Shown: positions 1 through 63,452 of the stretch, piece by piece
Position numbering within the stretch: position 1 is the first letter of the stretch
How the letters are laid out: every line of letters starts with the position of its first letter
Source: Ginglymostoma cirratum
Taxonomy: Eukaryota
Direction: 5' to 3'
DNA length: 64,000 nucleotides
Assembly: GCA_024137785.1 (NCBI GenBank)
Contig: JAHRHZ010000289.1
Location: 32,538,417 to 32,602,416, forward strand
Notes under the pieces: generated by a model
Told to the model about the DNA's origin: nothing
The model's input: the letters and a program-made list of their open reading frames with translations, nothing else
The model's database searches: none
Translations under genes and position numbers: made by a program

Positions 1-127
1 ATAGGAGCAGGAAAACTTGACGTTTCGGGCCTAAACCCTTCACATCATGCTGCTTGACCTGCTGTGTTCATCCAGCCCCATGCCTGTTATCTCGGATTCT
101 CCAGCATCTGCAGTACCTTTTATCTCT
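1..127. mobile_element. Hammerhead-bearing short element, family A; collapsed head-to-head palindrome, truncated by window start
   Basis: 1-46 reverse-complements to ...GAAGGGTTTAGGCCCGAAACGTCAAGTTTTCCTGCTCCTAT; 47-127 is the + strand 3' part of the same family (ATGCTGCTTGACCTGCTGTGTTCATCCAGC...CTCCAGCATCTGCAG), matching copies at 4270, 11215, 44380, 61253. Confidence 0.85.
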
Positions 128-3354: not shown

Positions 3355-3705
3355 TTAGATCTTTCACTGGATGTAAGCATCAGTGCTAAGGCTGCTGTTG
3401 CTTAGCCCAGGTTGCTTTTGAAGAGAAACAAAAACAGAAATCGCTGGAGAAACCCGAAATGTTGACTCTGCTTTCTCACCACAGATGCTGCAAGACCTGC
3501 TGAGTTTCTCCAGCTTTTTTTATTTTTGTTTCATCTGCAGTTCTTTGTTTTTGCCTTTGAAGAGGTGGTGTTGAAACACATTGCTGAATTACTACAGCCC
3601 GTCTGGTGTTGTTACACGACCAGCACTGTTCGAAAGGGATTTCTAGGATTTTGACCCAGCCAGACAGAAGGAATGCTACTGCAATTCAATGTTAGGATGC
3701 TGTGC
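3355..3705 (-). mobile_element. 3' end of the CR1/L2-group LINE family seen at 47121-48102, interrupted by a family B element
   Basis: AGGGATTTCTAGGATTTTGACCCAGC and GAAGAGGTGGTG are reverse complements of the 47930-48040 region. Confidence 0.65.
3426..3550. mobile_element. Hammerhead-family short element, family B; collapsed palindrome with 14-bp TSD
   Basis: Left arm AAACAAAAACAGAAATCGCTGGAGAAAC is the inverse of the right arm GTTTCTCCAGC...TTTTTGTTTC; residual core CCCGAAATGTTGAC; flanks TTGCTTTTGAAGAG (3412-3425) and TTGCCTTTGAAGAG (3551-3564). Confidence 0.85.
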
Positions 3706-4258: not shown

Positions 4259-4269
4259 ACATGTAGTTT

Positions 4270-4365
4270 TTCTGAAGAAGTGTCTAGGCCCAAAACGTCA
4301 GCCTTCCTGCTCTTCTGATGCTGTTTGGCCTGCTGAGTTCATCCAGTTCTACACCTTGTTATCTT
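4270..4365 (+). mobile_element. Hammerhead-bearing short element, family A, with TSD
   Basis: CTGAAGA-AGTGTCTAGGCCC-AAAA-CGTC at 4272-4299 (GAAA mutated); flanks ACATGTAGTTT (4259-4269) and ACATATAGTTT (4366-4376). Confidence 0.9.
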
Positions 4366-4379
4366 ACATATAGTTTCCA

Positions 4380-5976: not shown

Positions 5977-6790
5977 TGCCATTTGCTGCAAACCACTGTG
6001 TCATTTCCCCTCACTACACTTTTCACTCCTACTTGTTACTGTCCCCCACTTGAATGGCTTTTTTTTATAGAATCATAACAGTGTGGAAACAGGCCATTAG
6101 GCCCAACAAGTCCACACTGCCCCTCAGAAGAGCATCCCACTCAGACCCAGTCCCCTACCCTTTCCCTATAACCCTGCATTTGCCTATGTCTAACCTACCT
6201 AATCTAAACATCCCTAGACACTACGGGTAATTTAGCATGGTCAATCCACATAACCTGCACATCTTTGGACAGTGGAAGGAAATCGGAGCACCCGGAGGAA
6301 ACCCACGCAGTCATGGAGAGAATGTGCAAACTCCACACAGACAGTCGCCCGAGGCTGGAATTGAACCCGGGTCCCTGGTCCTGTGAGTCTGCAGTGCTAA
6401 TCATTGAGCCACCATGCCACTTGACATATATCACTGCCATAGCCATTCTGCTCATTCACCCTGTAGCTCCTGCTCTCATTCAATGTGGCTGAGATGAACA
6501 TATTGGATAAATGCAGAGGGTGGTACTCCTGCCCTCTGGATCTCCTTAAATGCCTCACTTGCTGTCATATCCTTCTTCCCCAACCACCTCCTGGTACAAA
6601 GAATCTGGGTAACTTTCCCCCTCCTTGATGTGTCACGGTGTCGTAGTTCAACCTCCAGCTTGTAAACTGTGAGCTGAAGCTGCTTGAACTTCAAACTCCA
6701 CTATAGATGTGTTAGGTCTGAATCTTAATTGTATCCAGGAGCTCCCATATGCTAACACATCACCTATTCTGAGATCATTAATGAGCTTTA
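5977..6790 (-). mobile_element. CR1 ORF1 relic interrupted by an HE1 SINE
   Basis: ORF 6476..6694 (KQLQLTVYKLEVELR) resembles the CR1 ORF1 coiled region, preceded by ATATGGGAGCTCCTGGATAC (WELLD-like). Confidence 0.55.
6067..6420 (-). mobile_element. HE1-type tRNA-derived V-SINE
   Basis: Minus strand GGCATGGTGGCTCAATGATTAGCACTG...GGGTTCAATTCC (A/B boxes), core TGTGTGGAGTTTGCACATTCTC, CR1-like tail GGCCTGTTTCCACACTG..ATGATTCTAT. Confidence 0.9.
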
Positions 6791-7189: not shown

Positions 7190-7632
7190 CACAGTCTGCC
7201 TGAAAGCAGATGGGGAATCACATCAGGATAAGGAGAGTCCTTATATGGCCAAGCCAATGGAAAAATATGGGATAAGCTGACCAACTTACACCTGATTGTG
7301 CACGCAACTAACCAACTGCATCCAGATAAAAATTGTTCGTGAGCACTTTCACAAGCTATATCGACACATAAACCTCTAAAAATTCCCACACTACAGCATT
7401 CAAGGAAGTAGACAACACCATCTTTAAGTTCACCTCCAAGTCACTCAACATCCTGACTTGAAAACATATCTTTATTTGTTAGGTCAAAATCCTGGAACTC
7501 CCTCTCTAATGACATTGTGGATTGGAGAGTTCAAGAAGGCAACCCACCACCACTTTTCAAGGACAACCAAGGGTGGTCAATAATTGCTGGATCAGCCACC
7601 AATGCTCACATCCCATGTGTGAATAAAAAGAA
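7190..7632 (+). mobile_element. CR1/L2-group LINE 3' fragment (47121 family)
   Basis: GGTCAAAATCCTGGAACTCCCT, GTTCAAGAAGGCAACCCACCACCAC, CACATCCCATGTGTGAATAAAAAG match 47930-48100. Confidence 0.8.
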
Positions 7633-8250: not shown

Positions 8251-8427
8251 GTAGACGCAGACACGTTAGTGTCTTTTAAGATGTATCTGGACAGGTACAT
8301 GGATAGACAGGGAGCAAAGGGATACAGACCCTTAGAAAATAAATGACAGGTTTAGACAGAGGATCTCGATTGGCGCAGGCTTGGAGGGCCGAAGGGCCTG
8401 TTCCTGTGCTGTAATTTTCTTTGTTCT
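8251..8427 (+). mobile_element. Young CR1 3' end inserted into the PLE GIY-YIG coding region
   Basis: TTTAAG..GTATCTGGACAGGTACATGGATAG...GGCTTGGAGGGCCGAAGGGCCTGTTCCTGTGCTGTAATTTTCTTTGTTCT; removing it restores EATY-INT; same tail as 32933-33401. Confidence 0.9.
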
Positions 8428-10600: not shown

Positions 10601-11214
10601 ACTTCCTCTTTGAGGTGAAAATTGCAAGTTTTCTTGACAGATTTCCTGATGTTGCATTCCATGCTCCTTCCTGGCAGTGCCTACTCACATCATTGCCATG
10701 GTGATTTTGAGGGATTGAGCTGGAGATGGAATTGTCACCTCTTGAAGCAAGTCCGAAGGATGACAGTAAGTGGATGCTGAGGGGGACCAGTTAGGAGGTT
10801 CAACTCCATTCATTGAGACATTGGGGCAATTCGGTCCATAAGTGTTAGGTACCCAAACCTTCATCCTCTTACATTCCACCTCCACATCGCCGTCCACGTC
10901 ACCTCCACACCCACAACCCCCAAATTTTATAATTACCCCTTCATACCCTCTGGGCCCCTCATCCATAAGCCCTGCAACAACATTTGGAAGTTTGAGAAAT
11001 ATTCGTCTCGAGGATAAAGTACTCTAATGCATGAACATTTTCACAATGGTGGTCAATTTAATAAGCACTTACCATTTCAGAACAAAAGTCTATCATCAAT
11101 CACAGCATTAATAACATACTTAACTTTTCATGTATTATAACATGGGAAATTATGAACTTTTTAAAAATTGCCAGTCAAAAGACTCCTGACTCCAGAATGA
11201 CTCCTGACTCTTCA

Positions 11215-11345
11215 TTTTCTGAATAAGGGTCCAGACCTGAAACGTCAGCTTTCCTGCTCCTCTGATGTTGCCTGGCCTGCTGCCTTCATACAGCTCTACA
11301 CCTTGTTATCTCAGATTCTCCAGCATCAGCAGTTCCTACTATCTA
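11215..11345 (+). mobile_element. Hammerhead-bearing short element, family A, with 13-bp direct repeat flanks
   Basis: CTGAATA-AGGGTCCAGACCT-GAAA-CGTC at 11219-11246; TGACTCCAGAATG at 11187-11199 and 11346-11358. Confidence 0.9.
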
Positions 11346-13139
11346 TGACTCCAGAATGTGGTTTCCTGATGCTTCACGGCCCTTCTGATTTGTTAAGGTT
11401 CAAACTAGCTTCAGCAACCCACCCAGTTCACTGAAAATCTCAAACTCAGTGAAATACAAGGTCGAGGTAGACAGCAAAATAGCTATTTGGAAAAGAATTG
11501 CAATATGATCATTGCAGACAAAGTGGGTTGTAATCGACTCAGTTTTCCATTCCAGTCAGATAGGTGTCTGGTGAGAACAAGGTTGCATCCAGATTGGAGT
11601 GGCCTCTATATGATTCCAGTTCTGCATTGACACTTGATATAAAGGGAAATGTGAATAGTTATGTGATGAATGTGATTGTTATACCCATATACCAGAAACA
11701 AACTTTTTGTTTAGGTTTTGAGCACTGGAAATAAAACATACTTGTGAAGCACCTTGAGATTTTTCTATTTTTGTGGTCCTTAATGAATGTAAATTGTTGT
11801 AATATTTTCAAGGAGAAAAGAATACCCATATCAGGCAATATGTTACTCCTATTATAACCAGCCGCAATATTTCTCTACATTAGTTAAAACTGTAGATTGA
11901 AGGCTATTGGGAGCTAGACAATGACAGATAACTCATTGTTTGTCTGTCTCTTAATAGTCATTCAACTGCTGGAATCTCTTTCTTACATGATCCCAGCCTT
12001 TGAGTAAGAGTAGTTTCCAAAGATGGAAAACAGTGCTTGTGATGAACTTCCTAATCAGTAAAATGCTTGTAGTTTACAGAGGCACAAACACAAACAAGGC
12101 ACAGCAATCGAAACAGTAAGGGGAGTCTCTTGAATTCTCACGATCAATTCATACATTAACGGAACACTGAAATTTCACATTCTGTATATATCCCTTCAAT
12201 CTCATTGCTACATTTCATTTATATCCTTCTGCCCAGTCCCAGTAGACTTTTCCATGGAAATACAATTCAATATAGAATACTTCCTAAGAACAGGTTGTGA
12301 GACAGAGTCTGAAAACTCACCCCTGAGGTGATCACTTATCTTCCTCTTCCCAAATGGAATGAGATTTGACAGAAGCAGGTGACATGTTATGTAGCCTAAT
12401 CTCTTTCCCTCTGTGGACACACACAGAGTTGCACATGAGAGCAACTGCCTCCTGTAAAATAATCTTAAAGTATTACCATCCATGTGGTTCAAATTTTGTG
12501 AAAAAAGAAAAACCTGGGTCTGCAAGTGCCAACTCTTCCTTATATCTTTTCTGTCCACTTTTGAAGAAGTGAAAAAAGACTGCAGCAATATCTAATCTCG
12601 GTGACAAAGCCTTGGGACCAATGAAAAGTGGGAGGATGCTTACACCATGTTAGATTCGAATGATAAATATTTTTCTGCATTTCACAAAACGAAGGAATGA
12701 TACTGAAGATTATTTGTTGGTCTCTGTATTGTTCCACTTTAGCATTACAATTGAAAATACCGAAGAAAGCAAACATTACGCACATGCATATTGTTATTGT
12801 CTGATTGAATCCTGGAGAGAACAGGTTTTCACACAGCAAAGATTAATGAGAATTGAGCCGTGGTTATCACCAACACTGTATCATGGGACTGTTGCAATGT
12901 TTTAAAGCTGCACGCAGTTTGAATATGCTTTGGAAGAATGGCTTGAATTCCCCTGAAACCCAACAGAACAAGTGATTGGTTTAATGGAGAGAAAAAAATC
13001 ATTCGATATGTGTTGTTTTGACAAAATTTCTTTTTAGTCCTGCCCATTATGGGTAATAAGGGAGCTTTATTTTATGATGCTCTAAAGCAAACATATTTTT
13101 GTGGAGACAGTTTCACATCCTTAATGAATTGCAAATATT

Positions 13140-20220: not shown

Positions 20221-20461
20221 AATGCGTGGTGTGCTGTTTTCTGTTTTTATTTCAATATTAATGTCTTGCTTGTAGTTTCTATTCGACAAAAACTGAACTT
20301 AAGATTCCATATACTTTTAATAAGCCTTGTTTCTGAACAATTCCGTCTCTTCACCGTATTACTTCACGTAAAAACCTAACTCTTTTAAATGTATTTGTTT
20401 TATTTTTTGCAAATGAATGACTTTACATGGTTCTTCAGCACACTAACTCTACCATCTATTT

Positions 20462-20587
20462 AACTGCGGATACTGAAGATCTGAAACAAAAAAACAGAAA
20501 TTGCTGAAGAAACTTAACGGATCTGACAGCATCTGAGGAGAAAACACAGAATTAATTTTCCAAGTCCAGTGACCCTTCTTCAGAATT
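20462..20587 (-). mobile_element. Hammerhead-bearing short element, family B (degenerate core)
   Basis: Minus strand TTCTGAAGA-AGGGTCACTGGACTT-GGAAAATTAATT...CAGATGCTG; possible TSD TCTACCAT (20448-20455, 20597-20604). Confidence 0.8.
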
Positions 20588-20969
20588 ATTTTTGGGTCTA
20601 CCATTATCTGTTCTTCCATATCGATCATCCTGTATTTTCACTACAGTCTTCAGTAGTGTTCCTTCAAATCTGGAGTATACATCATTTACAAGCCATAGAC
20701 TCCTGTGGAAGTTCATGCACCGTTCATTTCAATTCCAGGAAACCTCATTTTAATGCTTAACATTTGTGTTTTCCTTTCTAAAAAGGTGTCTATCCTTGTG
20801 ATTTCTCCCCCCTTCATACTGTCTGCTATTTTCCAGAAAATAAAAACCTTTGCTTTTATAAATTAGAGCACTAAGCACAAGACAAAAATATTTTGCTAAT
20901 CTTGCACAAGTTATTGGATAGCTATCGTTAAGAGAATATATCCAGTTTTCTGTGTCTTGCTTGAAGAAG

Positions 20970-21268
20970 TTCACTACTCCTCATAGCGCCAAAGACCAGT
21001 GTTCAATTCCAGCATGTTCTCCCCGTGTGCATGGGTTTCCACTGGGTGTTCCAGGTTCTTCCCACAGTTCAAAGGTGTGCAGATTAGATGGATTGCAAAA
21101 TTCCCCTGCGTGCACGAATCTGCAGGCTAGGTGAGTTAGCCAGTGTAAGTGTGGAGTTATGGCGACAGGGTGGTGGTCTGGTTTTGGATGGGATAGTCTT
21201 CAGAGGGTCAGTACAGACTTGGTGGGCCAAATGGCCTCTTTCCACACTGTAGGGATTCTATGATTCTA
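20970..21268 (+). mobile_element. HE1-type SINE, internally deleted
   Basis: CCTCATAGCGCC..GTTCAATTCC, TTCTCCCCGTGTGCATGGGTTTCC, tail TTCCACACTGTAGGGATTCTATGATTCTAT. Confidence 0.85.
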
Positions 21269-21854
21269 TAATGTGGGACATAATCATGAAAATCTTTTAG
21301 TGTCTAGCATGTTAACTGTACAGCATTATTTTAGCATCACCAAAAGAAGACATTACAAGAATTTAACACAGTGAGCTGAATATTTCTGCAGGTGTCTGAA
21401 GTTGATGCTGTGACCAAATGGAGCTCCTGAACTCGCATTTGTCAACAATGAAATTGGCAGAATGGTACTCGTAAATATTACACTTAGTAGAGATTTAAGG
21501 GCAGTGGGTGGACTCCTGGTGTTGCCTGTCTACAGGAAGGGTCAGCATTCGAAGCCCCATTGGAGGAAGCAGGCAGTGCTGATATAAATAGAAAATTGAG
21601 ATCAAACCTCAAGGCAGTCACAAATTAGTAGGTTTAAAAGTAAGTTTGAGAAGGATAGAAGCTGACAGACACCCCGTATCACCTCAGGCCCACAGGACAT
21701 CTAAACTGTCCCAACAGAGACCTCAAACACGTTAAATCATCTATGCTACTGCTGCTGCTCAGTGGGCAGCTGATCCATATCTCTTCCCACTGAGAAACCT
21801 TCCTGGTAGTAGGAGCTGCACTGGAGAAATCCCACCATGAGAGCTGGTGGAGAC

Positions 21855-23199: not shown

Positions 23200-24620
23200 A
23201 CAGTCCTAAATACATTCTCAGTGATGAACACACAAAGGAAGGTAAGAGGTTCTGAGGAGGATACAAAAAAACTACAAAGAGGCATATAGATATGTTAAGT
23301 GAATAGGCAAGAAAGTGACAGAAGGAGTATAATGTGGGGAAATGTGAAAATATCCACTTTGGTAGGGAGATTTTGGGGACCCTTTGGCCAATCAGAGGCA
23401 TCCCGTCACCAGGTTATCCACACTTTTCACCCCTTGCATTTTGAAGGGAGACCCCCATTGCCTCATAGACATCTCCAACAACAGGCTTGTTTGGGTACTT
23501 TGGCCTAGTGGGACTGCCTGTACTTCCAAAAGTCACCAGCATTCCCCTCTCCCAGTAGTTTTCTCAGGTGGGATTTTCTCCAGAGATAGTGGTAGGAGTC
23601 TTGCATTATTGTAACTAACTATTAAAACAGAATCATTTATTCAATGTGGGCATCACTGGCTGGGCCAATATTTATTGCCCATATATAACTGCCCTTGAGA
23701 AGGTGATAGCAAGCTGCCTTCTTGAACTTCTGCAGTCTTTGTGGTGTAGGTAAACACAATGAATGTTAGTCAGAAAGGGAGTTTGAGGACTTCAACCCAA
23801 AGATATTGAACTAAAAAATAGTCTAGTTCCAAGTCAGAATGGGCTTGGAGGGGAACTTGCAGGTGATGGTGTTCACAGTGTTAAATTTCAGTGGGGCAGG
23901 TTTCAGGATTGTGGTCTGACACATAACCTTCCTCATCACACCCCAAAGCCCCCCTAAACTATCCTGCCACCAGCCCCATTCCCTGACCCTTGGCTGGGTA
24001 TCAGGGTATCCTATCAATTGCAGCGCAATGTCTTACTGCGATTATATGTCTTGTTGATTACCAGAGCTTTGCATTTAGCCTTTTGTCTCTTTACCCAAGG
24101 AAGGATACTCTTCTCTTGCAGGAGTTGCAAGCAATATTTTATTAGATTCATCTTTGGAATGAGAGGGTTGTCCTGTGAGGGGAGATTGAGTGGATAGGTC
24201 CTGTCCCATCTGGTGTTTAGAAGGATAAAAGCTAATTAAATTGATCCAAATCTGTACAACATTATTTAAGGGCTTGTTAGAGTTGATGCTGGGAAACTGT
24301 TTAACCTGATTGGGGTGTCTATGACTAGGATCCATCACCTCTTGATTCAGGAAAGTAATCTAACAATGACATGAGGAGAAATTTCTTCAGCAAGAGGGTT
24401 GTGAATTCTCTACTTCAGAGAACTGTGGATGCTCAGTTGTTATTTAAGTATATTAAGTATATTTAAGACTGAAACAGGTAGATTTTTCGATATTAAGGAA
24501 ATTCAGAGATATGGGGATAGGGCTGAAAGTGGAATTGAAGTAGCCAAGAACTTATTGAATAGTGGTGGCAATTTCACAGGCTGAATGGTGCACTGCTACC
24601 CCTGTTTATTAAGTTCACAT
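23200..24620 (+). mobile_element. CR1 fragment split by nested repeats (CR1 at about 23200-23368 and 24075-24620)
   Basis: EEDTKKLQRGID / YNVGKCE.IHFG motifs, later AGGAGAAATTTCTTC..CAAGAGGGTTGTGAAT and CR1 3' UTR. Confidence 0.7.
23633..23880 (-). mobile_element. 3' end of CR1/L2-group LINE (47121 family)
   Basis: TGTGGGCATCACTGGCTGGGCC...TGCCCTTGAGAAGGTG...GCTGCCTTCTTGAAC...GGAGGGGAACTTG are reverse complements of 47860-48090. Confidence 0.85.
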
Positions 24621-42500: not shown

Positions 42501-44115
42501 GCAGTATTAAGGATAGCTAAAAGTATTGCTGAAATGACATATAATAGAGTAGGAAAGAATATTGTGGTGTCACCACTGTAGCATAACACTGTTATCTGGT
42601 AGTCAGGAGGGTGTAGTTACTTCTCAAAAACTAAATTGAGCATCTCCGATAGAGTTGTGGAAATTATAATGCGTTTGAAGTATTGAGCTATTATTCTACA
42701 TACTGTGGGTTTATTCAGATTCCAGCATACATTAAACTCATATTAACATTATAGCAGATATTTGAATCATTTTGATCAAAATGGTATCTTCTACTGGCAG
42801 AGATGCCAAATTTGGAGGTGGGGGAGCACATAATGAAGAGGGGTGGTGGCAGAACTAAATCCTGCTGCTTCTCTGCCTGCCCCAGAATTAAGTGAAAGAT
42901 CCTCCCATTCTGCCACGTTTGAGGCCCTTAAGTATCCAATTAAGGACCTTGGTTCAGTGTCACTGGGCATTACACCAGCCTGTCTTCATACAGTATTCCT
43001 GGTAGCCGCAACCCTGTCAGTACTGTGTCCCCAACGTGGAAGGGGACCTCTCAATAAAAAAGCAATCAATGCCTGATCGAGGGATTGAACATCATGCAGG
43101 AGGGTCCACACTAGGAGCCAATCCCTTGTGCTTGTTGCCGAACACACTGCAAGCGCACTTGCCCACCCCATTCCCCTTTCCCAGCCAGAGAAATCCCCAC
43201 CCCACATCAAGTTACCTTTGCCCTGAGTCCTCTGCAATCGTGGGGCTTTGGGGAAAATCTAATACCAGCAGCCATGACTTCATCCATGCTACTGCTAAGC
43301 ACAAAAGCAGTAGGCCATGTGAATTCACAGGGTAGGACTTCCAGCCGCAAAGTTCTCAGTTCTAGGGGAATGCCTGCTGGCAGCTCTCTCAGTCTCTTTC
43401 GCCAGATCAGTATTATTGGGGAATTATTATTGCTATTGTTGTTGTTGTATTATTGAGGCATTGGGAGGGACTCAACTGCCAGCTAGGAAGTTGGCAATAC
43501 ACCCCTGCTGCCTCTTCCAGGAAAGGCCCATCAAACCACATGCCAACCAGCCTTCAGCATTATAAGCATTCATTCAAAAGCGGAAGAGAATTAAATGGAT
43601 GCAACACGGGTGAGCAAGTAGAGAGCTATCACAACTACAATCCTTTTAGACAAAGAGTGCAATTCACATATGTCTGGATACCAACAAACATTTCTGACTT
43701 ATGCAGTCAGGCCAGGTTATATGAAGTTATTGCAACATTGCAAAGGAACAGAAGCTGGTGTAAACTAATGTACAACACGCCAATTGGACATACGGGGAGC
43801 GAGGCAGAAATCAGTGATATTGATGACTGTGTGGTGATGCTGATCATCAGCAGCTGGCAGCAAGACAACCAACAGCAACCGAAAGTAAAATGTGCCGCTT
43901 TATGTGGGTATACAATCACCCACTCTGAATGTGCTGTCAAACCTCGAAAACACTTTGTCAAAGTTTGAAGTATTAATCTTGTCACATGTCTGTAAACTTG
44001 TTGAATTGACAACACCTGCCTATGGACAGCAAAACTTATCTGTAGGGGATTTATTTTCTTTAGAAAAAGGGGAATGTTGTGTTATGTCTCAAAGTGGGTG
44101 TTTAAGATACCTTTT

Positions 44116-44190
44116 CAGTCTCAGTCCAGGGGTTTGACCATGCTCGGTCTTGGGGGTTAGGGCTGTAAACATCAAGACACATTTTCAGGG
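44116..44190 (+). repeat. Perfect 75-bp direct repeat, copy 1
   Basis: Identical to 45830-45904. Confidence 0.95.
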
Positions 44191-44379
44191 ACACGTTCAA
44201 GATGTTATCACTGTATTATGGAATGTGACCTAATCGTATGAAGCTCTGAGTCTCCTTCTAATTGGGCTCTGTTCTCCAACAGCATGTGTGCTGATGGTAG
44301 CATGTTACAATAGGTTTGAATTGCTTAGCTTGAACCCAGACACATATTTATGCAAATAACAAGCGTTGTAAAATAAGTT

Positions 44380-44475
44380 ATAACAAGCATGGGGCTGGAT
44401 GAACACAGCAGGTCAAGCAGCATCGTAGGAGCAGGAAAACTTGACGTTTCGGGCCTAGACTCTTCATCAGAAAAA
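44380..44475 (-). mobile_element. Hammerhead-bearing short element, family A, with perfect 16-bp TSD
   Basis: TTGTAAAATAAGTTAT at 44366-44381 and 44476-44491; body matches the other family A copies. Confidence 0.95.
44438..44474 (-). ncRNA. Minimal type I hammerhead ribozyme motif with intact core nucleotides
   Basis: Minus strand TTTT-CTGATGA-A-GAGTCTAGGCCC-GAAA-C-GTC-AAG: both core boxes and GUC triplet intact; one stem II mismatch, weak stem I; activity untested. Confidence 0.7.
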
Positions 44476-44919
44476 TTGTAAAATAAGTTATTGGGTTTGT
44501 CAGTACTATGTGACCAACATCTTATTCTTACAAGAGCTAATGTAAATGTCACAATATGGTACTGGCAGATCATCAGTATATCTTGTCACCTCCCATCATG
44601 TTGCAGCAATTGGGAATCCACTAGGTACCAGGCTGCCTGTTGCTGGGTTAACCGTAGCAGAGGTGAGCTTGCATCCTTAGGTAAACACTTTAGAGCATCA
44701 GTTATCAACTGGAAAGAAAGGGTGACCATGGATCTTCCCATCCAGAACTTCATTCTGTTGGAGGTGGGAAAACAGCAGAGCTGAAATATGCCGCTAGCCT
44801 AGCTAACCAATTGCCCTACCTACCTTCAAGCTCACCAGCTCCAGGAGCAGGAGATTCCACACTGTAATACTGTTATGTTGAAGCTTTAATGAAAATATTG
44901 GGACCATAGTGCAAATATT

Positions 44920-46620
44920 TTAGGGGACTTTTCCCAGCCCTTGAGTGATATGTGAAATGGCAAGCAATTTGGGAGAATAGGATGAGGACAATAAAATCAG
45001 AATTTAAGGAAATAAAGACTGACTTTCCATTTAAGGTTTCAACAGCTAGATCAGAATCTTGCTGGTAAGCTTATTTCCATACATTTGTTCCAATTAGTAG
45101 CCAATCTTGTCTCATTTATATACAGTGCATGATTTGCCTAGTCTTGGGTGAGGAACTCAAATGGTGCCAATTTACAATTTGAAAGTCTGAGCAGCTATTG
45201 AGCAGATGCAGCTCACAGTTGTTTGCCTAAGTCTTCTTGTTCACCTGCATTCCTCAGCATCTCATAGCCTGCTCTATAGCTAGCGACCACCTCCACTCTT
45301 CATCCATGGAATTCAGTACCAAAATGCCAGCCTCACCACATCATTATGGACAATCACAGGCTAATTCAGAAGACACTTTCAGCACATCACTATTGCACTG
45401 CGGAGCTCACCAACACTTCACTTTTCAATGCACTTGCCAGGTCAGTCTGAGCACAGTTACAAATACCCATCCTGTCTCCAGGATGCATCTCAGGGACCTT
45501 AGTTTGCTTTCTTAGTGCTTACTTACTTTGCACTTCTTTGCACCATCTCTATTTTGCCTTGCCTTTTCATACATTAGCACTTCATTGAGAAATTACAAGC
45601 TTTTAGCCTCTCTGCATGCCCTTGCTTCTTGTTGTACTCAACAAGCCAGGCAGATTGTCATTGGTTGCCTGCACTGAACAATCAAGGGGCTTGACCTGTT
45701 GCTTTATGAAATGGTGCTATGTCACAGCAGCCAAATGGCCACGTCTCAATGTCTGAAGGGAACAGCCTTTCGTGGAGTGATGGGAAACTATGGTCAATCA
45801 AGGTTTCCACCACATTCAGTCAAGGGATCCAGTCTCAGTCCAGGGGTTTGACCATGCTCGGTCTTGGGGGTTAGGGCTGTAAACATCAAGACACATTTTC
45901 AGGGGCCATCCATGCTGTGTTGGACAAGGTAGAAAACTTGAATTGGAGACAATAGTCTGCAATATAAAGGGGATTATTACTGTGGGTCTGGTACAGTATG
46001 GAAGGACTGAGGGAGAGGGTTTGGTTTTCCAAATCACCACTGGCCTGGCAGACAAATAAAGCGAATGAGATGTAAGTGGCTAGAAGAACTGTTTGTGGTG
46101 GTGACGTGTCCTTGGTGAGCGAGTAGGAAACACAGAGGGCAAGTAGGCTTAGTAGCTGGGAGGACGAGGTTAATGAGAACTATTGAATGAAATGCTGCAT
46201 GTAATAGTGAGAGTAGCAGATGATTAGCCTTGGTGGGAGATGTGTGGAATGGCAAAGCTAGACAGGGTGAGATAGAGTGTAGTGGCATTTACTCTTGCAA
46301 AGTGCAGAAGGTCTTTGAGATTCTGTCTACATTGCTGAGTGTTTCTTGTCACAGGGGGTCACTGTATGTTGACCATCTCAGCCCAGGCTGGCAGTATCTG
46401 GTGCTATTGCCTACTTTGAAGTCCAGAGGAAAGACAATGACCGTCATTTCAAGCACCTTGGCAGTCAGGACCTCCAGGTCCCTGCTCACAAACTGCACAG
46501 GAACATTGCTGTGGAGCTGAGATGTAATTATTGAGATGAACAGTCGAAGATTGCATGAGAAAAATCGCCATGGTCCACAATAGGAAATCTTCCATGAAAC
46601 TCCCCAGAAAGTTGCCCTTG
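44920..46620 (-). mobile_element. PIF/Harbinger-like DNA transposon relic with Myb/SANT-like pseudo-exon at 46289-46510
   Basis: Minus strand FVSRDLEVLTAKVLEMTVIVFP (frameshift) HQILPAWAEMVNIQ*PPVTRNTQQCRQNLKDLLHFAR then GTAA; trihelix Myb/SANT pattern F...LE.L...W..VA...R...QC....DL; element limits uncertain. Confidence 0.6.
45830..45904 (+). repeat. Perfect 75-bp direct repeat, copy 2
   Basis: Identical to 44116-44190. Confidence 0.95.
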
Positions 46621-47120: not shown

Positions 47121-48102
47121 GGGTCCTCAGGGTAGTGTCCTAGGCCCAACCATCTTCAGCTGCTTCATCAATGACCTTCTCTCCATCATAAGGTCAGAAG
47201 TGGGGATGTTTGCCAGTGATTGCACAGTGTTCAGCACCATTCGCGACTCCTCAGATACTGAAGCAGCCCATGTTCAAATGCAACAAGATCTGGACAATAT
47301 CCAGGCTTGGGTTGACAAGTGGCAAGTGACATTTGTGCAACACGATGGCCAGGCTATGACCATCACCAATAAGAGACCATCTAACCACCGCCCCTTGACA
47401 TTCAGTGTTACCATCACTGAATCCCCCACTATCAACATCCTGGGGGTTACCATTGACCAGAAACTCAACTGGATTCACCACATTAACACAGTAGCTACAA
47501 GAGCAGGCCAGTAGCTGGGAATACTGCTGTGAATAACTCATCTCCTGACTCCTCAAAGCCTGTCCCCCATCTCCAAGGCACAAGTTAGGAGTGTGACGGA
47601 ATACTCCCCACTTGCCTGGATGGGTGCAGCCCCAACAACACTAAAGAAGCTTGACACCATCCAGGACAAAGCAGCCCGCTTGATTGGCACTACATCTGCA
47701 AGCATTCACTCCCTTCACCACCAACACTCAGTAGCAGCAGAGTGTACTATCTACAAGATGCACTGCAGAAATTCACCAAAGATCCTCAGACAGCACCTTC
47801 CAAACCCACGACCACTTCCATTTAGAAGGACAAGGGCAGCAGGTATATGGGAACACCACCACCTCCAAGTTCCCCTCCAAGTCGCTCACCATCCTGACTT
47901 GGAAATATATTGCCGCTCCTTCACTGTTGCTAGGTCAAAATCCTGGAATTCCCTGCCTAATAGCATTGTAGATCAACCCACAGCAGGAGGACTGCAGCGG
48001 TTCAAGAAGGCAGCTCACCAATACCTTCTCAAGGGCAACTAGAAATGGGCAAGAAATGCTGGCCAGCCAGCGACACCCACATCCCACAAATGAACTAAAA
48101 AA
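47121..48102 (+). mobile_element. 5'-truncated CR1/L2-group LINE, RT C-terminal half and 3' UTR, relatively young
   Basis: PQGSVLGPTIFSCFINDL..EVGMFASDCTVF..QQDLDNIQAW.DKWQVTF..ILGVTIDQKLNW; EYSPLAWMGAAPTTLKKLDTIQDKAARLI; GGTCCT at both ends (47122-47127, 48103-48108); stop at end of ORF 47200..47514. Confidence 0.95.
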
Positions 48103-48120: not shown

Positions 48121-48240
48121 CAAAACAGAAATTACTAGAAAATGTCAGCAGGTGTAGTAGCATCTGTTGGACTAATTGAGTTTTCCAGCAATTTTTGTTT
48201 TTGTTTCTAATTTCCAGCAAACACATTTCCTTGGTTTTTC
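48121..48240. mobile_element. Family B element, collapsed palindrome lacking the ribozyme core
   Basis: CAAAACAGAAATTACTAGAAAATGTCAGCAGG..GCATCTGT joined to TGAGTTTTCCAGCAATTTTTGTTTTTGTTTC; flanks TTTTTCTGCTT (48110-48120) and TTTTTCAGCTT (48242-48252). Confidence 0.7.
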
Positions 48241-49123: not shown

Positions 49124-49660
49124 AGAAAGAAATAATTTACATTTATAAAGTATAATACCCTGTTGTACCACATTTGCGCAGCATGGTGGCTCAGTGGTTA
49201 GCACTCACATTGCGAATCCAGTCCTCGAGTGACTATGTGGAGTTTGCACATTTGCCCCATGTCTGCATGGATTTCCTCCCACAGTCCAAAGATATGCAGG
49301 TTTGGTGGATTGGCCATGCTAAATTGCCCATGGTGTCCTGGGCTGTGCAAACTATGTGGATCAGCCATGGGAAATGTAGGATTACAGGGATTGGGTAGGG
49401 AGGTGGGTCAGGTGGTCCGCTCTTCAGAGGGTCACTGTGGATTCAGTGGGCTGAGTAGCCTACTTCAACACTGTGAGGATTATTTGGTAGTGTACTATAC
49501 CTCAGGATATTCTGGAATACTTTACAGGCAACAAAGTAAGTTTTGAAATATATTCATTGCTGTATGTAAGAAAAGAGCAGCCAGGTGGCACACAGGCAAC
49601 AATGAGATAATCGCTCAGATAATCTGTTTTAGTAATACTCGTTGATGGATAAATAGCTCT
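49124..49660 (-). mobile_element. Deu-domain SINE 3' part interrupted by HE1 SINE
   Basis: CAGATAATCTGTTTTAGT...GTTGATGGATAAAT and TACTTTACAG.CAA..AAGTA.GTTTTGAA are inverse Deu SINE sequence; tail resumes at 49124-49170. Confidence 0.6.
49177..49482 (+). mobile_element. HE1-type SINE
   Basis: GCAGCATGGTGGCTCAGTGGTTAGCAC, TGTGGAGTTTGCACATT, CACAGTCCAAAGATATGCAGG. Confidence 0.9.
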
Positions 49661-50360: not shown

Positions 50361-50667
50361 GGGTGGTACGGTGGCTCAATGGTTAGCACTGCTAACTCAC
50401 AGTGCCAGGGACCCAGGTTTGATTCCACCCTCAGACGACTGCCTGTGTGGAGTTTGCACATTCTCCTGGTGTCTGCATGGGTTTCCTCCAACGGTCAAAA
50501 GATGCGTAGGTTCGGTGAATTGGCCTTACTAAATTGCCTGTAGGGTTCAAGAATGTGTAGACTAGGTGGGTTATAGGGGAATGTGTCTGGTTGGGATGCT
50601 CTGAGGGTCAGTGCGGACTTGTTGGGCCAAAGGGCCTGTTCCCACACTGTAGGGATTCTATGATCTA
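50361..50667 (+). mobile_element. HE1-type SINE, near full length
   Basis: GGTACGGTGGCTCAATGGTTAGCACTG, GGTTTGATTCC, V-core, tail CCCACACTGTAGGGATTCTATGATCTA. Confidence 0.92.
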
Positions 50668-51429
50668 TTTAATTACTATGGGGAGAAGAATTGGAAAGTT
50701 TTGAACTACTTGGACATACTCTGAACGGAAATGGGATCCTGTATGGTAATTTCTTGAAAAAGAAAGAAATCAACCAACAGCTTAATATGTACTGTAGTTT
50801 ACCTGCTGTTTACTCAAACACAAGTGACTTTGGAGAAACAGTCAATCATAAGTTTCAAGGAGATATGAGATGCTGCTTTCACCTTGATAATTGGAAAGCT
50901 TGGTTCTGAAAGCACTAGACAGCTTCTATGCCAAAGATTAACTGTCAACCCTTTCTGGTCTGAGAATTGGTATCACAGACCCAGGAGTCAGTGAAAAGAA
51001 GCTAAAAAGACTCTCCTGAAATTATGTTTCTCAGTAGAAGCTCCTGGGAATCTGATGGAGCTTCCAAATATCAATAAGTTTCTTCTCCTTGTTAAAACCT
51101 TAAGGGGTTGATTGAGGTCAAACCCTAAAGAGTCAATTCAAGTTAGTGGCAGTTGGAACAGGATGTTGACTATCAATCTATAGTTGTCAACAATTCAGCA
51201 TCATCAACAAGAAGTCCAGTGGATGTGAAAAGTCATCACATTTTATCCTTTCTTTCCCTGGATCACAGGGGTTTGTTTTTTTTTTGCCCTTTTGCACTTT
51301 TTTTTTCAAAATCTCATAATTTCTGTTGAAATATATCTTTTGAATTTTGCGTGGTTGTCTGTATGTGGAAACGAGGTGATATAGTTTTAAGTTCAGATTA
51401 TAGCTGAGGCATTAACCAGCTTTTGCCTC

Positions 51430-51770
51430 TTCATTCCCTTTCAGAACATAAAGCAATTCTCCACTATTAACAAACCTCTTCAGTTCTGAGGAAGGGTCAC
51501 TGGACCCAAAACGTTAACTCTGATCTTTTCTTCACAGATGTTGCCAGACCAGCTGATCATTTCCAGCAACTTCTGTTTTTGTTCCTTTGTCCATTGCACT
51601 GGGCCTCTGCCTCTGCCAAATGTATCAAATAAAAACATTTTCCAGCATCTTTCAGTGCTCACGAGGTTGTACCATACCTGAAATGTTTACTGTTTCTCTT
51701 TCCACAGATGCTGCCGGATCTGCTGAGTTTCTCCAGCATTCTCTGTGTTTGTTTCCAGTTTCCAACATGT
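51430..51770 (+). mobile_element. Tandem of two family B-type units, each with a hammerhead-like core
   Basis: AGTT-CTGAGGA-A-GGGTCACTGGACCC-AAAA-CGTT-AACT at 51482-51519; second CAGTG-CTCACGA-GGTTGTACCATACCT-GAAA-TGTT near 51653-51692; each followed by CACAGATG.TGCC.GA.C.GCTGA. Confidence 0.8.
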
Positions 51771-61200: not shown

Positions 61201-61252
61201 TTTTACTTTGTTTTCCTCCATGTCAATGCTACCAGCACAGGGAGTGTGTTAC

Positions 61253-61339
61253 AAGGGTCTAGGCCCGAAACGTCAAGCTTTCCTGCCCCTATGATGCTGC
61301 TTGGCCTGCTGTGTTCATCCAGCTCCACACCTTGTTATC
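61253..61339 (+). mobile_element. Family A element truncated within the ribozyme core
   Basis: AAGGGTCTAGGCCCGAAACGTCAAGCTTTCCTG...CACACCTTGTTATC; the CTGATG box is missing. Confidence 0.9.
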
Positions 61340-62344
61340 ATGGAGGAAATGTGATATTGGTTTGTGAGGGTTATCAAATTTGATCTCCTTGAATAAACAT
61401 GCATGTTGTGACATTGATAACACTGGGTTTACTCTGACAGTATCTATCTGACTCTGGTTCATATGACTTAAAGTTGTAGTTTGCTGAAGTACTGCAGGCA
61501 GTGTAGTGAAGAGCCACAAAGTCAATACCTACTCTTAGAAAATCCAAGTTCTGAAAGATTCATGTTCAACAAATTAAAATGATCTTTCAGACAACCAAAC
61601 AGTGGCAATGGTACAGGCTCATTTGCACATTTGTGGTTCTCAGAGGTAACTGCACACGATAAGAGTGGATCTGTCTCAGGCTGCCCTGATATTCATGAGT
61701 GGGATGTCAAAAACCATCCAAACCATGTACTCTCAGTGAAGCATTGTCCAAGCCCTCTGGAGAAATCAGGTACTCATTTGGATTTGGTATCTTTCATAGA
61801 GGTCAGGAGCTTTGTGGGAGCTGTAAGTTGTACTTTGGGTATACTAAATATAGGTATGAATGTGCATAAATTCACTGGGATTGTCAAGCTCGTGGCTGCC
61901 AAAATAGTTGCCCACGGTGAATACAATGTGGGCTGGCAAGGTATGTGCAAGGGAAAGTGATGGTGGGTGGTGGGGGTTTGGGGGAGGGGCGGTGGGGCAG
62001 TGAGATGGCATGACTTGGAAGTAGGTTTGCAAGCATAGGATGACATGATGGGTCTGAGAGACCATGGGGGTGTGGTGATGGTATCAGGTGGCATAGTTTG
62101 ACATGGATGGGGCATGGGCATAATGTGGGATGTGAAGGGTCAAGACTGAATGGTTGATTTGGCTTGTTTCCATCACCTCAGGCGGTAGTACACTGACCTA
62201 GGTCATCTATCCAGCCTGCCTCAAAACCAAACATGTCGCTTCACCAAACCAGTGTCTCCCACTGTGACTACCATGAAACCTTGCATCCCAGCCCATCCCA
62301 CCACCAACAACATCCCCCCCACCACCCCTACCCACCACCCCCCC

Positions 62345-63334: not shown

Positions 63335-63452
63335 CAGAGATCTGAAACATCAACTTCATATCTTTCTCCCCAAATGTTGCCAGCTGTGCTGAATACTTTC
63401 AACATTTTCCCATTTTTATTGCAGCTTTCCAGCATTTGGAATACTGTGTTTC
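63335..63452 (+). mobile_element. Old family B-type element
   Basis: TCTGAAACATCAACTTC...CAAATGTTGCCAG...TGCTGAAT...TTTCCAGCATTTG. Confidence 0.6.

Follow-up and report, generated by a model that had tools for sequence, protein, structure and literature searches.

A short repeat with a minimal hammerhead motif in the shark Ginglymostoma cirratum and its probable origin from the terminal repeat of a Penelope-like element

The DNA analysed here, hereafter the window, is a stretch of 64,000 nucleotides from Ginglymostoma cirratum (assembly GCA_024137785.1, contig JAHRHZ010000289.1, positions 32,538,417 to 32,602,416 of the forward strand). Among the 144 of its 211 stop-free stretches of 65 aa or more that were compared with Pfam, no host exon was recognised; the single reverse transcriptase (RT) match belongs to a LINE piece (47122-47511) and no GIY-YIG domain was seen, and the window is probably intergenic or deep intronic. 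On the minus strand, an insert of 94 bp (44382-44475) lies between two identical 16-mers. A previous reading of the letters alone (the sequence-only reading) had claimed a perfect target-site duplication at this place, and it is borne out: the 16-mer occurs in the whole window only at 44366-44381 and 44476-44491, and such a match at a given offset has a chance probability of about 1e-9. Fourteen of the 16 nucleotides at 44366-44381 are A or T, and the two bases adjacent to the element also fit the element's own continuation. Profiles built from the copies locate 12 insertion sites, five of the family to which the focal insert belongs (family A) and seven of a related family, B; the reversed window gave no site. 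The 12 sites account for about 2% of the window (Table 1). ORF sequence is attached at none of them, ARAGORN reports no tRNA gene across the window, no Rfam match lies over any copy and no inverted repeat is present within 43900-46100, the region around the focal insert, which agrees with the earlier description of an element devoid of ORF, tRNA head and terminal inverted repeat. The ends of the copies are non-repetitive, without poly-A or microsatellite, and in a self-comparison of the window the copies link only to each other and not to LINE or SINE copies. The focal site is a real, well-preserved insertion of what is probably an abundant shark terminal repeat of Penelope-like elements (PLEs). 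As a separate observation, the region of the focal insert is bracketed by a perfect 75-bp direct repeat (44116-44190 and 45830-45904, 1714 bp apart), which may have arisen by recent duplication, by a larger insertion or as an artefact of assembly.

Table 1. Copies of families A and B in the window, with the motif and the duplications at the focal insert
Feature	Position	Strand	Remarks
Family A, inverted arm of head-to-head pair	1..42	-	element nt 10-50, cut by window edge
Family A, direct arm of pair at 1-127	47..127	+	from element nt 53, with tail
Family B, head-to-head pair	3412..3563	.	inside 12/13-nt duplication (3412-3424, 3551-3563)
Family A, tail-less	4267..4365	+	duplication 10/11 (4259-4269, 4366-4376)
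Family A, with tail	11214..11345	+	duplication 13/13 (11187-11199, 11346-11358)
Family B, single, decayed hammerhead	20460..20590	-	5' end at stem I arm
Family B, pair	35967..36180	.	inverted arm, microsatellite-like spacer, direct arm
Target-site duplication at element's 3' end	44366..44381	.	16 bp
Focal insert, tail-less family A copy, probably pLTR-only	44382..44475	-	94 bp
Minimal type I hammerhead motif	44440..44473	-	boxes and stems read by position
Target-site duplication at element's 5' end	44476..44491	.	16 bp
Family B, old head-to-head pair	48122..48219	.	tail absent from inverted arm, partial on direct arm
Family B, single	51480..51590	+	4-bp stem I, intact stem II, G12 lost
Family B, single, decayed	51655..51769	+	profile match
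Family A, tail-less, 5'-truncated	61253..61339	+	first core box absent, no direct duplication
Family B, single, decayed and 5'-truncated	63338..63450	+	profile match

The focal insert contains all core bases of a type I hammerhead in the order CUGANGA, GAAA, NUH, at the places given for them in the sequence-only reading. CUGAUGA occupies 44470-44464 and is followed by an extra A (44463), a stem II region of 12 nt (44462-44451) and GAAA (44450-44447), after which C-GUC extends to 44443, so that GAAA-C-GUC as a whole spans 44450-44443. Stem I has 3 bp (44473-44471 with 44442-44440). Stem II comprises four pairs and is closed by G10.1-C11.1, its second pair being an A-C mismatch (44461/44452), and the putative cut would fall after GUC at 44443. 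Stem III is a loop-less palindrome, ACGU; because loop 3 is missing, this stem can form only between two copies, via the palindrome. In each of the remaining four family A copies a single box or base is absent or has been lost, as in the copy at 4267-4365 (G12 lost and stem II mismatched) and that at 11214-11345 (G8 lost). The focal insert had been called the best copy of its family, which is correct insofar as its core bases are complete, but not for its stem II: the second pair is A-C here and G-C in three of the four other copies.

All four additional family A copies named previously were recovered with BLAST and nhmmer, at 77-98% identity to the focal copy over the aligned parts, and two of them have duplications of 10/11 and 13/13 nt. 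The copy at 1-127, although real, is not the single unit it had been taken for but two arms joined head to head, of which the inverted one is truncated at the edge of the window. This inverted arm is 93% identical to the focal copy and lacks the start of the first core box, while the direct arm is 98% identical over 42 nt; the copy shares subfamily-diagnostic changes with the focal one. A LINE-type 5'-inversion by twin priming was considered for it and dropped, as the inverted arm runs off the window edge. At the copy beginning at 11214, about 15 extra nucleotides (11200-11213) separate the left duplication from the element; most of them duplicate the stretch immediately upstream of the target site, and they were probably inserted by template copying when the 5' end was joined. 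At the 3' junction of the copy at 61253 the flank is present as an 11-bp inverted copy (61211-61221 and 61339-61349), which suggests an inversion or fold-back repair at insertion. In family B, G12 is lost at the one site that was examined pair by pair, and decay or truncation of the core is visible at the others.

Two features that are hallmarks of PLEs, and that the sequence-only reading had missed, are the presence of two alternative 3' ends and of inverted pairs arranged head to head. Three of the five family A copies stop at or just after TGTT, and two continue for 38-39 nt past it. The short and the tailed ends are thus 33-37 nt apart, and the length of about 95 bp given earlier holds for the short form (94 bp in the focal copy) but not as the full length of the element, which two of the five copies exceed by that distance. 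Head-to-head pairs account for four of the 12 sites in the window (1-127, 3412-3563, 35967-36180 and 48122-48219). Where the pair is complete (three of three), the tail is missing from the inverted arm and present in whole or in part on the direct one: at 3412-3563 these arms lie at about 3425-3455 and about 3452-3550, and at 35967-36180 they lie at 35967-36015 (minus strand) and 36064-36180. The 5' ends are clustered as well, since the starts of three of the five family A copies and of two of the seven of family B lie no more than about 5 nt from the first core box, those of the rest being further in; two of the starts at the edge of this box directly abut the duplication. None of the 12 sites extends 5' into shared upstream sequence, which is not what random 5' truncation alone would predict. 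Begun at the cleavage site, or circularly permuted, is no copy, and no head-to-tail array of the unit exists in the 64-kb window.

The duplications of family A measure 16, 13 and 11 bp, and that at 3412 measures 13 bp; among random pairs of positions in the window (1500 trials), lengths of 13 or more were obtained in 0.4% and of 11 or more in 1.1%. The focal duplication is rich in A/T (14/16), but the other two of family A have 8/11 and 7/13 in a window with 60%, so that three duplications do not establish a target preference. The high copy density expected by the sequence-only reading is supported by the five family A sites in 64 kb, which correspond to about 78 per Mb (95% confidence interval 25-182) if the window is typical.

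Hammerhead searches had been proposed earlier as a check. The scan of the window with Rfam returned no hammerhead and five unrelated matches at E<=5, all below the gathering score; the Rfam hammerhead models are uninformative for loop-less variants. A strict descriptor of the minimal hammerhead had no match in the window, and with one mismatch allowed the focal copy was the sole match. At least one match to this relaxed descriptor was also found in 19 of 200 Markov-simulated windows (in one of 200 if a stem I of 3 bp or more was required), and the significance of the motif therefore rests on the family context and not on the motif alone, whose box pattern had no match in 100 shuffles. The boxes are shared by two related families whose stems differ, and the family displays the extra base between 9 and 10.1, the pair G10.1-C11.1, the palindromic 15.2-16.2 and the absence of loop 3. 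Stem I has 2-3 bp in family A, fewer than the 4-5 bp expected of this type, and 4 bp in family B. Stem II is intact in three of the five family A copies, with four pairs each and a predicted pairing probability of 0.99 in two and 0.28 in one; that of the focal copy is 0.000, compared with the 0.99 of two sister copies.

Two further checks had been named, core-box conservation and covariation. Departures from the column majority number 2 in 51 cells at core positions and 34 in 358 elsewhere, a difference that is not significant (p=0.29); inserted copies decay neutrally, and this result is consequently not taken as refuting the motif. Across 11 rows and the eight pairs of stems I and II, 74% of the cells are paired, which is reached by 10 of 500 shuffles, and two-sided change is seen at a single pair, which 346 of 500 shuffles reach. 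Folding z-scores of single copies range from -1.6 to +1.5 and lend no support to a stable fold. The focal copy is predicted to prefer a hairpin that buries its first core box, and its active dimer is placed at +10.3 kcal/mol as against -20.0 for the best dimer; the folding model disfavours the active dimer for better-paired copies too. The ancestor of the family carried a hammerhead, but an intact ribozyme is present at none of the 12 sites of the window, and the focal copy's own ribozyme is, on these folding predictions, probably inactive. The epithet "ribozyme-headed" is apt as anatomy, but the cleavage site is the start of no copy, and an intact ribozyme has survived in none.

Relatives of the repeat were sought in protein libraries using translations of the element. 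One frame yielded 12 matches, the nine named ones all from Stegostoma tigrinum or Rhincodon typus (carpet sharks), and the host range is taken from these named matches; another frame yielded 26 more, 38 in total. Three of the 38 are chance matches (P0025, P0029 and P0034) and three others are isoforms of one locus. All 35 real matches are chimeras or translations of the repeat, that is, gene models that have absorbed it. Both 3' ends are present in the gene models of Stegostoma and Rhincodon as well, and head-to-head pairs occur in six of the 38 matches, with 11 of their 12 arms starting at element nt 1-12, in a search that favours pairs with short gaps. A few models share a C-rich stretch just upstream of the repeat (P0017, P0040). 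Annotated shark proteins, among them rnf8 and one with a BEN domain (P0006-P0014, Stegostoma and Rhincodon RefSeq entries), begin with an exon derived from the repeat, MLLGLLCSSSS..., that looks false and may be an annotation error or may stem from transcripts starting in the terminal repeat. A search for stray shark DNA in bacterial and archaeal genomes had no match.

A fragment of PLE RT in one of these matches led to PLE proteins in Chiloscyllium, Rhincodon and Stegostoma. One of them, P0042 of Rhincodon, possesses RT and GIY-YIG domains, and its linker has a C-x4-C-x2-C motif, which is given as characteristic of Neptune and Nematis (PMC8557442). Of the 38 matches, 36 were tested for RT fragments and two long ones left out; an antisense piece of P0042-type RT was found upstream of the repeat in four of the 36, with 67-83 bits against shuffled maxima of 17-21, and one of these four models also has a sense RT piece. 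In a fifth model the match, a weak one in sense orientation, is to the GIY-YIG region of what seems to be another PLE type than in the other four. Pieces of PLE ORF are accordingly present in five of the 38 repeat-containing models, in orientations that fit inverted 5' or direct 3' terminal repeats, and this suggests a link between the repeat and a PLE ORF. The models are chimeric and probably spliced, and LINE pieces are, by eye, at least as common in them as PLE pieces, so that the proximity may be due to chance. No PLE ORF remnant was found in the window. The family A peptide was found in none of 125 PLE proteins, among which family B gave one weak match (E 0.004). An ORF start at the core AUG or in the MLL frame was considered but is not supported: these frames are open in some copies, and neither peptide occurs in the 125 proteins. 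Presumably, repeats of this kind end long PLE copies in bamboo shark assemblies. In P0005, P0017, P0027 and P0040, the antisense of shark PLE RT is an open frame that gene finders have called an exon.

Several properties of the shark repeat are familiar from PLEs. PLE insertions are described with an optional tail of 30-40 bp, often on one arm only, and with an adjacent inverted 5'-truncated copy (PMC8557442, PMC3846280, PMC8969392). The minimal hammerheads of PLEs (Cervera and de la Pena 2014, PMC4209133) likewise have a type I core without loop 3, an extra base after A9, G10.1-C11.1 and a palindromic stem III. They number thousands per vertebrate genome, as in coelacanth and Xenopus, mostly as lone copies and partly as opposite-strand pairs close together, and lone ones in Schistosoma have been read as truncated PLEs (PMC4209133). 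The stems differ, with 4 bp in stem II and 2-3 bp in stem I here versus 7-8 and 4-5 bp in the Schistosoma families, and no shark is named in the main-text passages compared here. For Penelope of D. virilis, a helix I of 2 bp has been described (PMC4209133), transcription starts in the pLTR (PMC2377424) and the 5' side of helix I marks the end of an intron. Cleavage by hammerhead dimers is reported by Lunse et al. (as cited in PMC6765202), and PMC6155905 is a further source of background.

A close mechanistic parallel is Poseidon of Anolis carolinensis (Frangieh et al. 2024, PMC11167929), in which a hammerhead lies near the end of the pLTR and RT starts inside the RNA at two sites delimiting a tail. 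Its protein cuts and extends the two strands of the target and prefers AT-rich DNA; uncleaved RNA serves as template, and RNA with a dead ribozyme inserts normally. By contrast, the ORF of Poseidon starts at stem II and continues past the tail, while the shark repeat has no ORF attached and no start codon tied to one, and its likely partner has a zinc-finger-like linker motif (Neptune/Nematis type), unlike Poseidon. Penelope of Adineta vaga (Arkhipova et al. 2013, PMC3846280) and the Chlamys elements (Craig et al. 2021, PMC8557442) share pLTR-only copies, head-to-head arrangement, a tail on one arm and mobilisation in trans. Their pLTRs are, however, about 190-220 bp long and few, with duplications of 8-10 bp, in contrast to a dense shark repeat of 95-135 bp with duplications of 11-16 bp. 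Among repeats of cartilaginous fishes, SacSINE1 and CmiSINE (shark and chimaera, PMC5499810) are also short, non-coding, dispersed and retroposed, but consist of a tRNA head and an L2 LINE tail, neither of which is present here; the accessible text of PMC5499810 mentions neither Penelope nor hammerheads.

Terminal repeats of PLEs with minimal hammerheads are already known from fish, coelacanth, amphibians and reptiles, and a PLE expansion from the introns of the whale shark (10.1101/443036). The novelty of the repeat had therefore been overrated by the sequence-only reading, as lone minimal hammerheads from truncated PLEs and non-autonomous PLEs have both been published. Our search of the literature outside subscription papers, Dfam and Repbase found no report of this shark family or its hammerhead, and four motifs of the element occur in the main text of none of the papers searched. 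The supplements of PMC4209133 (its searchable file) and PMC11167929 contain no match, those of the preprint 10.64898/2026.07.22.740005 may list shark families, and a repeat of this density is likely to be present in automated repeat libraries.

On these grounds we consider it moderately probable (about 0.6) that the family consists of pLTR-only insertions of a shark PLE, which itself is probably of Neptune type, and that they arose by the following priming and copying process. The GIY-YIG endonuclease of the PLE would make staggered nicks in AT-rich DNA, as the duplications of 11-16 bp imply, and its RT would prime inside the element RNA at either of two sites separated by 33-37 nt, from which the short or the tailed 3' end would follow; the two ends are seen here, and internal priming at two sites is known in vitro from Poseidon of Anolis. 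The uncleaved RNA would then be copied back through the hammerhead, with a stop a few bases beyond it. The position of this stop is observed, and its simplest cause would be that the transcript, or its copyable part, starts there. If both nicked strands prime, the product would be a head-to-head pair with a tail on one arm and none on the other, the arrangement seen at 3412-3563; the extension of two strands is taken from in vitro work on the Anolis protein. The identity of the partner PLE is deduced, and the hammerhead would be an inheritance from its terminal repeat, with stem III formed in a dimer only and not needed for insertion. The focal insert, without its ORF, was probably dead on arrival. 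Three of four structural marks of a pLTR are found, namely an optional tail of 30-40 bp, an adjacent inverted copy and a variable target-site duplication; the fourth, an adjoining ORF with PLE RT and GIY-YIG endonuclease, is hinted at by the five gene models. Together with the hammerhead signatures and the named carpet-shark matches they support the earlier claims of a minimal type I hammerhead of the PLE kind, of retrotransposition by PLE machinery and of a shark host. Against the pLTR-only reading, no stretch of DNA was seen that runs uninterrupted from family A into a full PLE ORF, and the samples behind the reading are small.

The same enzymes are at work in a different explanation, possible but distinctly less probable, according to which the repeat is a separate non-autonomous family whose master is the unit of 95-135 bp alone, transcribed by itself and moved in trans by PLE proteins. 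The fixed 5' boundary, in the window as in the 11 of 12 arms of the protein matches, the lack of ORF sequence at the 12 sites and the subfamily changes common to the focal copy and that at 1-127 would all be expected of such a master, for which there are precedents in Chlamydomonas (Chlamys, PMC8557442), in the short Penelope of butterflies (PMC6685494) and in the sufficiency of pLTRs in trans (PMC3846280). It is weakened by the fact that no promoter, tRNA head or other transcription source of its own was found, that the search through proteins favours short-gap pairs, that RT fragments adjoin the repeat in four gene models, and that the C-rich stretch shared by P0017 and P0040 fits the existence of longer copies. 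The non-autonomous, SINE-like family of the sequence-only reading is favoured by the 5' clustering and the missing ORF, but the tail, the pairs and the RT fragments point to a PLE's own terminal repeat.

Much less likely are the two remaining explanations. The copies could be dispersed monomers of non-LTR retrozymes, in which dimeric hammerheads cut the transcripts of tandem arrays and the circularised products serve a PLE as template for reverse transcription. Animal retrozymes are non-coding, possess a type I hammerhead, derive from pLTRs, leave dispersed monomers and include one chondrichthyan genome (PMC7229834; 10.64898/2026.07.22.740005), and the ACGU palindrome would permit a dimeric stem III; but they are defined by head-to-tail arrays with a hammerhead per unit and by circular RNA, whereas the window has neither an array nor a copy starting at the cleavage site or circularly permuted, the motif is of the minimal PLE type with 2-3 bp in stem I and not the canonical type of PMC7229834, and the chondrichthyan families average 363 bp (10.64898/2026.07.22.740005). 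We regard this origin as improbable, and even more so an ordinary LINE-dependent SINE, a MITE or a chance look-alike of a hammerhead. For the latter one may cite the relaxed motif in 19 of 200 simulated windows, the empty Rfam scan, the core boxes that are not significantly better kept and the weak covariation. These are opposed by the lack of a tRNA head, of a poly-A or microsatellite end, of a terminal inverted repeat and of any LINE or SINE match in the window, by the same boxes recurring with different stems in two families, and by the tail and head-to-head pairs, which are not features of SINEs or MITEs, so that this explanation is largely refuted already.

Sharks might contain roughly a hundred pLTR-only inserts per Mb, produced by a dedicated ORF-less PLE parasite or by internal priming on the first pLTR of a transcript, with a fixed 5' boundary at the 5' edge of the hammerhead and not at the cleavage site; we put this forward as a tentative and rather doubtful proposal. 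Were it true, the hammerhead fold would serve as a boundary or recognition signal for PLE copying instead of as a cutter, and pairs of tail-less and tailed arms would preserve the traces of two-strand priming in the genome, with hundreds of thousands of copies available for testing. The part most worth following is the 5' boundary at the edge of the ribozyme as opposed to its cut site. With its two 3' ends, fixed 5' edge and pairs, the repeat offers a large natural data set on how PLE insertions are resolved and on the role of the hammerhead, and it matters in practice because shark gene models take it for an exon.

Other repeats are present in the window. A 5'-truncated LINE with an RT domain (Pfam RVT_1, E 2.5e-8) lies at 47122-48042 on the plus strand, and shorter 3' pieces at 7412-7629 and 23633-23877. 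A separate repeat family of 250-350 bp, about 70% identical among its copies (6067-6420, 21017-21269, 49226-49481 and 50363-50668), is what we take to be, probably, a tRNA-derived shark SINE. Finally, two 58-bp copies in opposite orientation (8370-8427 and 32944-33001), 97% identical and located at the ends of LINE-like fragments, are a young LINE 3' end.
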